DNA of 64,000 nucleotides from Octopus sinensis (Eukaryota): the NCBI RefSeq assembly GCF_006345805.1, contig NC_042998.1:131750001-131814000 (forward strand). Direction: 5' to 3'. Position 1 is the first letter of the stretch, and the number at the start of each line of letters is the position of its first letter. Both the position numbers and the translations under genes were made by a program. The notes beneath the pieces were generated by a model. It saw only the letters and a program-made list of their open reading frames with translations, ran no database searches and was not told where the DNA came from. Shown here piece by piece: positions 7,533-57,197 of this stretch.

Positions 7533-8958
7533 TGAGAAAGTTGGTGTGTGAAAGCACGTGGTTGAATATATAGAAAATAGTAAAAAGTGAAAAAACTACA
7601 GAAGGCTTGTTTTAAAAGGTTAAAAAATATATATTTGAGTCATTATGTCTGAAGAATGTTATAAATTTTTTTCATACAATGACATAGTTTTTGAAGAAAT
7701 GACCGGTTTCGCGTTCAGCTTTTCAAATTTCTTACATCTTTATGTTTACGTTGAGAAGTGTTGAGAAGAGTTCCAGATAACGGGAGGTAATAAGTGATTT
7801 CTTCCGGTGTAAGGGAGATAATCGCTTAATATTTCTTGCCTTTTTTTGGGAGTGTATAAGAATGCTGGAATGGTTAAGTTTGGGCTTGTATTTTTCAATG
7901 AAGAATGTTTCCTTGTTTAGTCTAATTTGCGTTGGTGTTCCGATAGCACATTGGTAAAATGGAAAGATTAAAAATTGTGGTAGTAGTTGCTTTGCGCATT
8001 TCTCAATGTGCTCACTAAAGGGTATCATTCTGTATTCTGGGAATGCAATCTGTTGTCGATGCAGTGTGCATCTACGTCTGAGTGATAGTCCCGTGGACCC
8101 CACGTAGTTTTGGTGGCAGCCCGAGCATTTTATGACATAAATTATGTCTTCAGAGGCACAAGTAAAATTAGATTTGATCTTGAATTTCTGTCCCTCTTTG
8201 AAGAGGAATTCTGATCATTCTAGAATCTAGCAGGTTTGGACATGTTGCACAGTTCGATCTACCACATTTTTTTACTTTTGCATCCGTAATTTCAGAAAAC
8301 AATTTTGCCTTTGTGAGAATCTTTTTAAGTGATTTAGGTTGTTTGTAGCTTTTAAGGATTTGGTGTATGTTTAGAATTTCCTTTAATTTGGGGTCCTTAT
8401 GAAGTATTGGTAAATTCTGGGTGATGATGGTGAAGGCTTCTTTGTTTCTGGGGTTGCATGTGGATATTTAAGGTAGTATTTTCGGGGAAGGTGTGTTGTT
8501 GTGTTGAACTTTTCTCAAAGTTTCTATGTTGATTTCTGTTGCACGTCTGATCCCATCCTCTATGAGTTGAGCTGGGTAATGTCTGTCAATTAGGGTGTTT
8601 TTGAGTTCTTGCAGTCTAAAGTTCCTGGTATTTTGTTCTGACACTATTGTGCATATCCTTCTTGCAAGGTTGAAGGGGATGTTTGTTTTAGTGTGTCTTG
8701 GGTGGCATGAATCAAAAAGTAGGTATTGTTTGGCGTCTGTGGCTTTGTAAAAAATGTCTGTTTCTATTTTAAGGTTAATTTTTTTAATTAGTATATCCAA
8801 GAATGGGAGCTCCTTTTTGTTGTATTCCATTGTGAACCGTATATCTGGGTTTATGCTGTTCAATAGGTTTTGAATTTTAGGAGTTTATCTGTGTTTTCAT
8901 TCCAGAGTATAAAACAATCGTCCAGGAATCGTTTCCAATTCTCTTTTATGTATTGAGT
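7531..8958 (-). mobile_element. 5'-truncated Penelope-like element: RT C-terminal half, GIY-YIG endonuclease and 3' UTR, frameshifted
   Basis: WKRFLDDCFILW (RT catalytic), LPFLD, YL.F.SCHP.H, IYVIKCSGCHQNYVGST, LRRRCTLHR, ETFFIEKYKPKLN; ends in (TA)n. Confidence 0.92.
7694..7733 (-). ncRNA. Minimal type I hammerhead ribozyme, U3-A8 variant, in the PLE 3' UTR
   Basis: AAGAAAU UUGAAAA GC-UGAAC-GC GAAA CCGG UC AUUUCUU: 7-bp stem I, palindromic stem III. Confidence 0.75.
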
Positions 8959-10015
8959 TTGTGTCCACTTCATCTATGGCTAGTAGGACATCTTTTTCGC
9001 TAATGTCAATACATTCTATTGTAACCGCCTCGCTGGTTATAGGTGAGGCAGTAAAGAAGTCCACTGGTCCGTTCACTTGTCTGTGTTCCAACGGGGTGGT
9101 AAAGACACTTTTGAACTGGTCATTCAGCATCTCACTGATCATAGTCGGACTGTCTGTGAGGGAGCCATCCTTTTGGAGGAGGGGTCCTATCTTGTAGTGC
9201 ACTGAGACTGTTTCTTTCGCGTAATGAAAGAAGGCCTTTGGGTTTGATTTAATGTTTTTTATAACCCAGGCTTCTTTGTCTGCTTTCTCCTTCACATTGG
9301 CTCGTTGCAGCCTTTTTTCGATCTCCATCAGTGTTGTTTTTAGGCGGGACGTTTCGCTACTTTTGGGATGTTGGTTGAGACGATTTGCAACCTTCGTCCG
9401 TCGTCTCATGACATACGGCTTGCACAGAAGACATGAAACATTCTAGTTTCATGCCAATGTCTGATGTGGAGAGACATTCCGGCCAGTCCTCTCTGAGGAT
9501 CTCTTTTTGGATCAATTTCCAATCTGCTTTGTGGAAGTTCAGATTGGAGAGATTTCGGCTGCTTCCTTTAGGCTGTATGTCTCTGGTTACTTTTGGCCCA
9601 AACATAGACAGCTCTGTTATGTTGTGATCCGAAACTGATGTCGGTGTCACTTTCACATCATGAATAATGTCCATATTGTTCGTGAAGCAGAGATCCAGAA
9701 TGTTATTCGCCCTAGCTGGCTTGAGTACAACTTGCTCCATGAATAAGGCATTGGTGAGGTTAAGCAGGGACTCCACCTGTACTTGCTTGCAATGATTCAT
9801 TCCTGAAAGTATGTGACCTTCGGGCCATTTGACGTTGGGGAAGTTGAAATCACCCATAAGAAATATGGTCACGTGGTGTTCCAGATTCATGAGGATTTCT
9901 TTAATTCTTGTGAGGCAATCTTCAAACTTGCCTATGTGATTTGGGGCATCCGGTGGGCAATATGTATTGCATATGACTATATTATGTTGTCTTATGTATA
10001 CAATTAAGGTGTCAC
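8955..10015 (-). mobile_element. CR1-like LINE ORF2 fragment (APE endonuclease and linker), pseudogenised
   Basis: MGDFNFPNVKW, NILDLCFTN, SDH, NFHKADW, IKSNPKAFFHY, LNDQFKSVFT. Confidence 0.9.
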
Positions 10016-20746: not shown

Positions 20747-20882
20747 TATATACATATATATATAATTCACGAACTGTTACTCCGAGTTTCACGTAACTGT
20801 TCCTCAAACAGTTGTGATAAAATTTTTTTCGGCTTTAATAATAAAATAGTATTTTACTTGAGTAGTATCTTTTCTTCCTTAG

Positions 20883-44987: not shown

Positions 44988-45476
44988 TGCATATGTCCCC
45001 TAACATCACTTGACAATCAATGGTGGTGTGTTTACGTGCCCGTAACGTAGCGGTTCGGCAAAGAAGGCGATAAAACAAGTACTGGGCTTACAAAGATTAA
45101 GTCCTGGGGTCGGTGTCTGTTCGACTAAAGGTGGTGCTCCAGCATGGCCGCAGTCAAATGACTGAAGCAAATAAAAGAATAAAAGAGTATCAGAAAGCGG
45201 ATGAGAAAGTGCAGTCGGATGAATGCACATCAAGCAAGAGTACGAAAGCACACAGATGAAACAAGAAACAAGCACAGCGGAGAGATGTATTGGAAGAGCA
45301 TGGAAATGGAAAAAGGAAGAAATTGCGAGGAAAACAAAAACAAGGAGTAAAACAGAATGAGATAGGTTAAAAAACGGTAAGTATATAAAATTGTGGAAAG
45401 AACTACAATTAAAAGAAAACATTTGAACATTTTAAAATATTGTAAAGAAAAAGAAGAAATAAGGAATTGATGAACA

Positions 45477-45882
45477 AACAAGTATTTAAAAGGAAAGATC
45501 AGGGTTTCGCATTGCAGCGAAACTAGAGGTGGTTTTAAGATTAATTGTAAAGTGTATTTGTAAAGTTTAGTTGTAAAGTTAACCATAAAGTGTGTTTGTA
45601 AAGTTTTATTGTAAAGTTTAATCGTACAAACAAGTATTTAAAATGTTATTTTTGTTGGAAAAAAAAGGACACATATGAACGTTTATTTTAAAGGTAGGAA
45701 ACGAAAGGAAGGGTCAGTTTCGCATTGCAGCGAAACTAGAGGTGATTTTAAGGTTAATTGTAAAGTGTATTTGTAAAGTTAATTGTTAAGTTTAATCATA
45801 AACTGTGTTTGTAAAGTTTTTATTGTAAAGTATAATTGTAAAGTATAATCGTAAAGTCAATTGTAAGGTCTAATTGTAAAGG
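45477..45882. repeat. Imperfect direct repeat (period about 210 bp) built from about 13-bp ATTGTAAAGT subunits
   Basis: GTTTCGCATTGCAGCGAAACTAGAGGTG at about 45503 and 45717. Confidence 0.85.
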
Positions 45883-45889
45883 TATTCAC

Positions 45890-46249
45890 GGTTCGTCACG
45901 CAGCGGGGGCGAGATGGCCGTCTCATTTGCATCATAATTATATTCATTTCATTATCATTTTCCATTCGTTTTTATGACCCCGCATGTTTGTGTATGTCCC
46001 CTCTGTGTGCAGGCCTTATGTCTATAATAAAGAGAAAAAGGCATGCTACTCCAGACTGACGACGAGAAAGACTCGGAAACTAGTCTCTGGTTGCAGGCTT
46101 AGCTGGGTGGGGGTGCTTGTCTCCCCCTTGTAAACATAAGGACACAGGAAATGTGTCAAGGCCGACAGAAAGCGTTGATGTTTCCTAGGGATAAATAGCG
46201 GTGGTGTGATTTCCTTTATGGGACTGTCACATTAAGTTGACAGTTATAC
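45890..46249 (+). mobile_element. Retrozyme-like or non-autonomous PLE element A; 5' end approximate
   Basis: Contains a canonical HHR; architecture shared with 56244-56661. Confidence 0.65.
46051..46090 (+). ncRNA. Minimal type I hammerhead ribozyme, fully canonical core
   Basis: CCAGA CUGACGA CGAG-AAAGA-CUCG GAAA CUAG UC UCUGG; predicted cleavage after GUC at 46085. Confidence 0.9.
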
Positions 46250-46314
46250 AACTACTCTATCGTACCACCACTGCTTATATCTCTCTGAGATATTCAGAAA
46301 TGTAATATTTCTAT

Positions 46315-46353
<39 letters not shown>

Positions 46354-52050: not shown

Positions 52051-53493
52051 AAATCCGTTCTGTCGCTCTCTGTGTGTGTCTTCTAGGATCTCGGGCATCC
52101 TCCATCCGATTGGGCTCAAATTTGATACGTAGATACTAACTGTATCAAGGCGTGTATAAGTCTTGAAAAAATTACAAAAATCGATTCCAGGTGAGAATGC
52201 GATCGATAAAGCCATGGGAACGTGCATTTGTACGCGCAATTACATCAGCTGTTGCGATCGATTCTGGGTCCGATGAACTTTGTCAGACAGTTTACCCCGA
52301 TCTATCTTCTAATTTCGGTGACCATCAATGGTTGTGTGATAGAGCCATTTTAGCGCCAACCAATGCCAACATCAATACGCTTAACACTCGCTTCCTTCGT
52401 CAACTGCCGACCCAGGAACGAATCTACACATCCGTTGATTCAATTACTGACCCAGAGCAAGTCGTGGTGTACCCGACCGAATTTCTTAACTCACAAGAAC
52501 CATCGGGTTTGCCACCCCATAAACTCTGCCTCAAGGTTGGAAGTCCCATTATTCTCCTCCGAAACTTGGAATCCCCACGACTTTGCAATGGCACTCGGTT
52601 GGTTCTCACCCAACTTTTGGATGACGTTCTCGAGGCAAAAGTTATCACGGGTCAAGGAGCAGGGGATGTTGTTTTTATTTCCCGCATGCCATTGATTCCG
52701 TCGGACTGTGTTTACCCGATGAAACGCGTTCAATTCCCTATTCGCCTGAGCTTCGCGATGACCATCAACAAAGCACAGGGGCAGTCATTGAAAGTCGTGG
52801 GGTTGGACCTCAGCACTCCCTGCTTTTCGCACGGACAACTGTATGTGGGCTGTTCGAGAGTTGGCTGTTCGACAAACCTTCTCTACTACGCTCCAGACGG
52901 AGTAACAAGGAATGTGGTTTACAAGATTGCGCTCCACTAGCTTTTCCATGCCCTTGAACATCCCGTAAAGTAAGTTAGCTTAAAATTATTTAGTTAGTTC
53001 CCTAGGTTGTTGCTTTTCATCAAAAATCAGCCCAAGTTGATTTCCTACATGTTTTATCGGATAAACTTGTTATTGTCCCAGGTATGTTCTCATAAATTCA
53101 TCATGCTTTTCCATCTAGATTTACCTACAGCTAACCTATTTGCATGGATCATTTTTGTCATGCTTTTCTTCCATCAACCTGTACATAACTGCACCTTCCA
53201 TTTTTTGTCATTTTGCACTGCTTAAAGGCACGTTTCTTTCCTGCCAAGCATACTGTTTAAACCATGTTTGTGTTCTCCCAGTCAACAGCCTTATCATTAC
53301 TGGTAATTTAAACTCTTCGGTTGTATATTTGTGTGAATAAAATCGTTTTTCTTTTGCTGGTGTCTCAAATTTAGGTTAAATCAGTGTTTCTCAAACAGGA
53401 GGCCTATGGGACGGTCGGACAAGTTGTTTTGAGAAAATTTGGTTTAATGTTTGACAACTCAGCAACGTCCATTGGACGGGGGGCATTTTGCTC

Positions 53494-56050: not shown

Positions 56051-56243
56051 ATTGGGTTTTCTCAATTTAAAAATTATTACTTATGATAAGTATATATATA
56101 TATATATTTTCTTTTTAATTATTAAAAATCAAATTAACACCGGTCTAATGGAAGAAAGTCTGTGTGTAAGCGCTTTTCACTGCTTTCAGCTTTTCAGACG
56201 TTGTTGGTTAAACAATAGTTACCGGCACAACAGAATAAATAAG

Positions 56244-56661
56244 GTAAAGTATAGAAGCCATCTTATCATGGCTAACCACATTGGGGAGGGGGTGTTACTG
56301 TAGCTTTATAGCCCCAAGAGATCTTCGTCTCTAGCTGGCTTTAGACACAATATCTGTGTCCTTGGAGTATTTGCAAAGGGAGGCCATCCCTTCCTCGCAA
56401 GCCTGAGTGATACGCTCGAACTAGTTTCGGGATTGTTGTCCCTCGTCAACGGGCGGTAACCAACAGGTAGCGATGAAAGAGAAGGCTCCTTTGCAAATGA
56501 TGTCGAAAAACGAACAGTAAGCATAATTAAATCTCAGAATGAGATTGAAACAGTAATCGCTCGATAATGTAAAGTATAGAAGCCATCTTATCATGGCTAA
56601 CCACATTGGGGAGGGGGTGTTACTGTAGCTTTATAGCCCCAAGAGATCTTCGTCTCTAGCT
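56244..56661 (-). mobile_element. Retrozyme-like element B: 325-bp unit plus 93-bp terminal redundancy
   Basis: Exact direct repeat 56244-56336 and 56569-56661 bracketing an HHR. Confidence 0.75.
56413..56455 (-). ncRNA. Minimal type I hammerhead ribozyme, C3U variant or damaged copy
   Basis: CGCCCG UUGACGA GGGA-CAACAA-UCCC GAAA CUAG UU CGAGCG. Confidence 0.75.
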
Positions 56662-57197
56662 CATGTCAATAAAATGTGAAGGTGAGGTTAATATTTTATT
56701 TACTTATTTTTGATTACTAGGGTGTCGTTCACGATGATTTTCGTCTACATGGTCAGAGGATCAATAAAAGTTTACTAGAGTGTACTAAAGCGATTGACAT
56801 TGAGATTACGAAAGAACAGGACTGGACACGGACAGACGATATACAAGGACAAGGACATACTGGACAAGGATATACTGGACAAGGACAGGCGATATACAGA
56901 TGTTACCTCACGGCAACGGAACTGCTAATGCGTTAACCTTTACCCGTAGTACTTTTTGAAAACTGGACCGGATTCTACATCATCCTGAGCACCCTATTAT
57001 CAATGTTACCCTTTGACTGATTCCCTTTAAATGAAAAAAAACTCAAATTTCAATAAGAAATTATATACGGCCAAGGGCGGGAACCTCGAGTAGCAAAAGA
57101 GCACAATTGATAACTTCTTCGAAACATCCTGTTTCATTGTATTGCATATTATAACATCTATACGTACGTATGCATATATATATATATATATATATAT

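Follow-up and report, generated by a model that had tools for sequence, protein, structure and literature searches.

The window, by which we mean the whole 64,000-nt stretch of Octopus sinensis DNA that was analysed, is rich in microsatellites and in interspersed repeats, which we take to resemble octopus SINEs, and it contains fragments of a LINE endonuclease, a PIF1 helicase and a Penelope-like element (PLE). The helicase fragment (52167-52940, plus strand) is of the Helitron type and apparently tandem-duplicated, with repeated motifs lying 1514-1515 nt apart nearby (52319/53834 and 52721/54235). Two further elements, A and B, each bear one hammerhead ribozyme, and their parts are given below together with the Penelope-like fragment.

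7694-9007, minus strand: Penelope-like element, 5'-truncated and broken, with the end of the reverse transcriptase (RT) and the GIY-YIG domain at 7849-9007
45860-46035, plus strand: segment upstream of the element A ribozyme, repeated in other contigs, with no demonstrated homology to B or to the run-on of A
46046-46095, plus strand: type I hammerhead ribozyme of element A, with a UAC bulge (motif proper 46051-46090)
46096-46130, plus strand: 3' strand of the family's long ribozyme-closing rod
46138-46157, plus strand: AAGGACACAG...TGTGTC hairpin (GACACA/UGUGUC), with 6/6 stem pairs identical in A and B
46160-46192, plus strand: hairpin domain of a closing helix and an inner hairpin, imperfect in A
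46198-46274, plus strand: bridging helix (46198-204 with 46268-274) that encloses two hairpins, crosses the end point given in the initial annotation and covaries between A and B
46224-46260, plus strand: TAAG-loop hairpin (46224-43) and TATAC (46245-49), with insertions inferred to end 3' preferentially at about 46260
46250-46318, plus strand: run-on in the circular unit order of B, with an ATCTC/GAGAT hairpin (46278-92), up to (TA)15.5 at 46319-46349
56239-56661, minus strand: element B, 1.3 units of a 325-nt monomer, its hammerhead core beginning at 56449

Judged by its letters, the hammerhead of element A is a genuine type I motif with every core base present. Stem I (CCAGA/UCUGG, 46051-55/46086-90) is Watson-Crick in 5/5 pairs, stem II (CGAG/CUCG, 46063-66/46072-75) forms 4/4 pairs below an AAAGA loop, and the core consists of CUGACGA at 46056-62 and GAAAC-UA-GUC, with GAAA at 46076-79; cleavage is predicted 3' of C46085. 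The core had been called perfect in the initial annotation, which holds for its letters, but helix III is one pair with a palindromic CUAG loop (ACUAGU, 46079-84). These helix sizes fit the canonical metazoan hammerhead, described in the accessible part of PMC4209133 as having a helix I of 6 bp, a helix II of 4 bp and a helix III of 1-2 bp with a palindromic loop; helix I has 5 bp in A itself, and the letter enabling a sixth pair is carried by 78% of the depth in sequencing run X1. Scanning the 64 kb with a descriptor on both strands returned three candidates, namely A, B and a weak match at 20807 (minus strand; UUGAGGA, 2-bp stem II), the last probably due to chance, and GAAACTAGT occurs just twice in the window, once in each element. 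An Rfam scan of A at E<=10 gave no hammerhead match, and no ribozyme was among the 150 of 173 matches listed for the whole window, which were low-scoring and involved microRNA models and one scaRNA on simple repeats.

The helix III of A resembles that of the axolotl HHR_Amex1, which likewise combines one pair with a palindromic tetraloop, and by analogy with that ribozyme, as far as it is described in the accessible part of PMC7229834, the motif of A would be expected to show weak cleavage as a monomer and efficient cleavage when dimeric. The computed energy of the monomer changed from -8.3 to -2.8 kcal/mol once the 1-bp helix III was forced, and a double hammerhead reached -22.4 kcal/mol, as against -16.6 kcal/mol for two monomers lacking helix III. 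In direction the energies match dimer-dependent cleavage, but the minimum-energy dimer is an alternative fold at -28.5 kcal/mol.

Element B, about 10 kb from A, is an insertion of 423 nt with a 98-nt terminal redundancy containing one mismatch (99%), and its whole 325-nt period is non-coding (GC 45%, longest Met-ORF 72 aa; the values for A are 44% and 49 aa). The insertion exceeds one unit, starts mid-unit, crosses its own cleavage site and ends 3' at the position homologous to A46260; as candidates for a target-site duplication there were matches of 5-6 bp, none flush with both ends. Its hammerhead has UUGACGA (C3U), GUU instead of GUC and a C.A mismatch in stem I, and it matches the Rfam model Hammerhead_HH9 (RF02275) with 25.8 bits (E 3e-4), below the gathering score of 52. 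The match covers the full model, including the UUAC and CAA.AA loop letters, whereas A gave no match and has C-G as its first stem II pair in place of the G-C of the consensus. The HH9 motif occurs singly in amniotes and has a stable helix III. B folds beyond shuffled sequences in both linear (z -4.1, 0/100) and circular form (z -4.0, 1/200). Its terminal repeats are nearly identical although the hammerhead has three departures, a paradox that would be explained either if the departures were already in the template or if the repeat was homogenised later. No third copy of A or B was detected in the 64-kb window by blastn and nhmmer (best other E 0.18).

The initial annotation assigned A and B to the same family of hammerhead elements, and their homology outside the core is confirmed. 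On the 3' side of the ribozyme the local alignment score of 51 (z 11.3) was reached by 0/2000 shuffles and 0/2490 genomic tiles, and two segments are 60% and 57% identical, where shuffled sequences average 45-47% and reach at most 52%. On the upstream side, in contrast, the alignment did not rise above shuffled controls (z 0.5, 585/2000 shuffles; z 0.3, 1937/5000), with an identity of 45% versus 42% when shuffled. Three upstream motifs said to occur in the same order are present, but they are too weak statistically to indicate homology, as three ordered shared 7-mers were equalled by 104/3000 shuffles and 52/2492 tiles. In addition, UGACGA and GAAACUAGU are shared by both elements as claimed, but do not by themselves prove kinship, because seven metagenome loci have the same core and CUAG loop and are otherwise unrelated.

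These seven loci, on six contigs, were retrieved with a core-only pattern that required the hammerhead core; they have only that core in common with A and nothing in common with B, and six of the seven matched nothing in Rfam at E<=0.05. A pattern built on the two subfamilies found no match among viral and metagenome contigs. Tandem or circular-looking units with the same core and CUAG loop were seen at L002 (period 1021), L003/L004 (period 727), L006 and L007 (123-nt terminal overlap), those of L002, L003/L004 and L006 being related to one another (68-85%) and unrelated to A and B; they are possibly retrozyme- or viroid-like elements of other eukaryotes. L001 (509-936) and L005 (1-428) share a 428-nt stretch at 97% likeness; it contains a hammerhead and then a palindromic hairpin, and has the appearance of a dispersed element's terminus.

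The register of element A differs from that originally proposed. The unit 45890-46249 is shifted with respect to the stretch homologous to B, which covers about 46040-46292, and 45890-46035 has no demonstrated homology to B. Nor does A end at 46249: the TAAG hairpin and TATAC with which both elements were said to end do occur in both, but A extends to at least 46292. Thus, 46252-46291 aligns with the start of the unit of B (z 4.2, 13/5000 shuffles, 1/2492 tiles), and contigs spanning 46249 were found in three runs (X1, X2 and X17). The fold energy of 46020-46318 lies well below that of shuffles (z -3.6, 0/200 as good), and that of 45890-46249 does not stand out (z -1.1, 15/100 as good).

Within the corrected stretch, several helices are kept by paired changes. 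In stems I and II, which had been described as differing completely yet still pairing, six of the nine pairs are doubly changed, while two are identical and one is broken in B (C.A); with registers fixed by the core, 6/7 doubly changed pairs are still Watson-Crick (p 0.007 at a chance of 1/3). The bridging helix in our register shows three double changes, one single change and three identical pairs between A and B, and RNAalifold predicted it without being prompted, three bases out of our register and with two double and two single changes. Three RNAalifold helices together keep 14/14 pairs with five double changes, a result matched by 15/500 shuffles and drawn from two sequences only; the same helices slid out of register are 29-57% paired. 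The domain at 46160-46192 is the positional homologue of the AGC/GCT and AGAGA/TCTCT helices of B, and the 5' partner of the rod is seen in B and in one X17 loose end and is absent from the sequence upstream of A. Covariation here rests on two sequences, and it supports the view that A and B are two divergent subfamilies of one hammerhead element whose structure is kept by compensatory changes. The further proposal that structure was selected rather than sequence is too strong, since the AAGGACACAG/TGTGTC hairpin, TAAG and TATAC are identical in A and B, and some sequence is conserved as well. That the two are a satellite or dispersed DNA repeat spread by recombination at the DNA level, with the ribozyme an inert relic, would agree with the decay of A, with the mutated core of B and with in vitro cleavage in only 1/9 Xenopus dimers (accessible part of 10.64898/2026.07.22.740005); we find this scarcely credible, because compensatory changes in five helices indicate that an RNA fold was under selection, and the copies lie scattered over both strands with inversions among them.

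The upstream segment (45860-46035) probably represents a separate or chimeric part, as suggested by its failed alignments and by a summed depth far below that from the ribozyme onward, a figure that reflects contig depth and not copy number. It differs from the other contigs by 80-100% at several sites, and 45897-46011 can fold into a domain of its own. The alternative that A is longer than one unit, with the upstream part being the previous unit, was rejected on the basis of its terminal redundancy (z -0.3). Directly upstream of A, 45474-45886 (plus strand) holds two units with a period of 215 bp that are 89% alike over 140 nt, and in each an inverted repeat (GTTTCGC/GCGAAAC) flanks ATTGCA and a 13-bp TAATTGTAAAGTG minisatellite comes next.

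Contigs from 4 of 24 listed sequencing runs were placed on the stretch at 80% likeness. Two DNA runs yielded 2235 and 2409 placed contigs, most of them less than 95% alike, indicating many divergent copies of the family, and the partial presence of the stretch in runs of six organism labels suggests that the family is common to related species; 20 of the 24 listed runs contain part of the stretch, and none contains half. No run labelled RNA is among the 24 listed as containing it. Two runs guessed to be RNA, X15 and X17 (6 and 50 contigs), are without cover at 45860-45955, which we do not count as evidence. The deepest X17 contig, over 46170-46294, carries letters that are rare in the DNA runs (46246, 46253), which suggests one particular source copy; RNA editing is not claimed for its A>G differences, as these come from one contig with mixed types of change.

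The contigs also describe the relation of A to the other copies. Of the 50 named pairs of A, 7 are not Watson-Crick, and for each a pairing variant occurs among the 40 of 99 variant rows listed, in five cases at 78-99%; three of the nine helices were named after the variant table had been seen, and B has helices at two of those places. Element A is therefore read as probably a decayed copy with private mismatches. The 40 listed rows include 27 within 46040-46295, 11 of these in the named helices, and among the remaining helix variants listed one forms a G-U pair and three mispair with the partner in A (at 73%, 2% and 0.1%). At 46075 the prevailing letter is A (73% in X1, 82% in X2), and it does not pair with C46063 of element A; this counts against a strictly kept stem II unless the partner also changes, and the family may frequently lack an intact first stem II pair, position 46063 not being among the 40 of 99 rows listed. 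Loose ends show CUGAUGA cores, a loop II starting with CAA and, in one variant of stem II, A-U replacing C-G.

Consensus sequences of loose ends from 26 (X1) and 36 (X2) contigs follow A to 46264 and 46260, respectively, and then diverge; these contigs were selected by their break at a 1-nt indel, and the sequence of A continues through 46260. We infer a preferred 3' end of insertion at about 46260, which would be common to B and to many A-type copies. Such an end, together with conserved sequence mainly 3' of the cleavage site and with 5' inversions, which arise in LINE-type priming too, could be taken to indicate a linear, SINE-like element without any circle, in which the 5' hammerhead trims read-through transcripts and a LINE or PLE enzyme recognises the 3' hairpins. 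SINEs moreover dominate octopus repeats (accessible part of PMC8967140). We consider this very unlikely, because A and B keep the 5' half of the ribozyme that a self-cleaved linear template would lose, B is over one unit long with a mid-unit start, and homology runs beyond the preferred end in circular order. In addition, no tRNA, 5S or 7SL match was obtained from Rfam at E<=10 in 45850-46290 or 56200-56700, and there is no A-tail, B being tailless and A abutting (TA)n, which is possibly a target.

Thirteen joints were listed, each from one contig per run at 80% likeness, of which two go back from 46310 to the ribozyme, six are to the opposite strand and five are skips. At most a few hundred bases lie between 46310 and the ribozyme in the two go-back contigs; one comes from a guessed-RNA run and one from a DNA run, so that the joint is no proof of an RNA circle. 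In two inversions the length of the side equals the distance to 46310, implying head-to-head 5' junctions, and head-to-head joints to the opposite strand are a pattern described for PLE insertions (accessible part of 10.1101/2021.04.23.441226).

The Penelope-like fragment in the window sits fused behind the LINE endonuclease fragment, and its best named relatives are from Argonauta hians and Octopus bimaculoides (61-64% identity), followed by bivalves. Going by this sequence, a candidate helper PLE family is present in the genome, represented by a fragment separate from A. In the 3' region of the fragment, inspection by eye showed a small, decayed hammerhead-like motif at 7694-7733, with a 7-bp stem I, a 2-bp stem II, an ACCGGU helix III and two core changes, and a (TA)n tract begins at a distance of about 160 nt beyond it. 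Four comparisons were made with the 3' end of this PLE, the best being that of A (z 2.6, 46/2000); B gave z -0.2, and the 215-bp unit showed no significant link.

Given these neighbors, A and B might be solo pseudo-LTR (pLTR) or 3'-end remnants of autonomous PLEs, 5'-truncated and never independent circles. In the accessible accounts, the hammerheads of PLE pLTRs are of type I, and in some of them helix III is small and palindromic; partial tandems and inversions are hallmarks of PLEs (10.1101/2021.04.23.441226), Xenopus retrozymes are homologous to pLTRs (10.64898/2026.07.22.740005), and most contigs depart from the sequence of the window just upstream of the ribozyme. This origin nevertheless appears unlikely. 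With 118 PLE-type proteins, tblastn matched the window only at 7849-9007 and not near either element, so that no ORF with RT and GIY-YIG adjoins these two copies; the full period of B is non-coding; and the two go-back contigs return to the ribozyme within a few hundred bases. Moreover, A and B align poorly to the local PLE 3' end, and their canonical helices and HH9-like loop letters are unlike the 2-bp stem II motif found there. More generally, PLE pLTR hammerheads, as far as they are described in the accessible accounts, resemble A and B in type I topology, a weak palindromic helix III and dimeric cleavage (predicted here), whereas A and B differ in their canonical 4-bp helix II, their loop motifs and the lack of an adjacent RT-EN ORF.

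Taken together, we consider it probable, with good though not full confidence, that A is a decayed copy of a many-copy non-coding hammerhead repeat that is most likely a non-LTR retrozyme, circularised as RNA and copied by a PLE enzyme. The class itself, which the initial annotation did not name, is already described, with members in mussels, corals and salamanders: A and B would be metazoan non-LTR retrozymes in an octopod, and the ribozyme is ordinary. As far as the accessible part of PMC7229834 goes, they share with the metazoan retrozymes a canonical type I hammerhead, a non-coding unit of about 325 nt with GC below 50%, a self-paired fold and PLEs in the same genome. Mussel retrozymes measure 350-390 bp, and the axolotl Rtz331 and Rtz353 form two divergent subfamilies, as do A and B (PMC7229834, accessible part). 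Members of this class lack an LTR, PBS and PPT, and any target-site duplication exceeds 4 bp. The same text describes tandem units of 150-450 bp; the period of B is 325 with 1.3 units, two of the thirteen joints go back, and A is solo. Most invertebrate retrozyme motifs in it cleave as monomers, whereas A and B have an amphibian-type helix III, predicted to be dimer-dependent, in an invertebrate host. They are further set apart from those retrozymes by the cephalopod host, by the occurrence of a solo copy and a 1.3-mer only and by the variable first stem II pair. The direct repeat of B is a partial tandem without a ribozyme, unlike the LTRs of plant retrozymes. The retrozymes of Li (2026; 10.64898/2026.07.22.740005, accessible part) are similar in having dispersed monomers, co-occurring PLEs and PLE-like partial tandem or inverted joints; homology to PLE pLTRs is not established for A and B, and no mollusc is among the classes named there. 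By the rule given in that text for an active retrozyme, neither A nor B qualifies, as both are monomers, and no hammerhead-to-hammerhead dimer was seen, each element having one ribozyme. No description of a cephalopod retrozyme came up in the literature searches made, and the supplement of PMC7229834 might list cephalopods.

As B is longer than one unit and the cleavage site is intact in both A and B, a circular or an uncut multimeric template is needed. We propose that tandem copies would be transcribed by read-through, after which two ACUAGU palindromes would form a 6-bp helix III and each unit would be cut after GUC. A host RtcB-type ligase, as shown for the circularisation of mussel and axolotl retrozymes (PMC7229834, accessible part), would then seal the monomer into a circle of about 325 nt. 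Target-primed reverse transcription by a PLE-like RT would begin at a preferred site near A 46260, some 16 nt beyond the TAAG hairpin on its 3' side, and proceed round the circle, over the sealed cleavage site, for a variable distance, which would give rise to 1.3-mers like B, truncated copies and 5' inversions. Element A, which stands alone and has mismatches private to it, is probably inert.

The present analysis extends retrozymes to an octopod, and the A/B pair is divergent enough for the conserved RNA architecture beyond the ribozyme to be mapped. The priming site and the RT of animal retrozyme circles were left open in the accessible parts of PMC7229834 and 10.64898/2026.07.22.740005. 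Features common to the two subfamilies, which are 57-60% identical, are the GACACA/UGUGUC hairpin, the UAAG hairpin and, apparently, a 3' insertion end about 16 nt beyond it. Our bolder and tentative suggestion, which we hold to be possible but doubtful, is that these invariant hairpins and the fixed 3' end expose the mobilisation signal of animal retrozymes, the point at which rolling-circle reverse transcription by a PLE enzyme starts, and that B is a crippled circle that was still copied. If true, B, whose ends agree at 99% and mark it as recent, would demonstrate that copying goes on even from circles that can no longer cut themselves again. The common 3' end and the invariant hairpins offer a usable clue to the start of reverse transcription, one that is directly testable.
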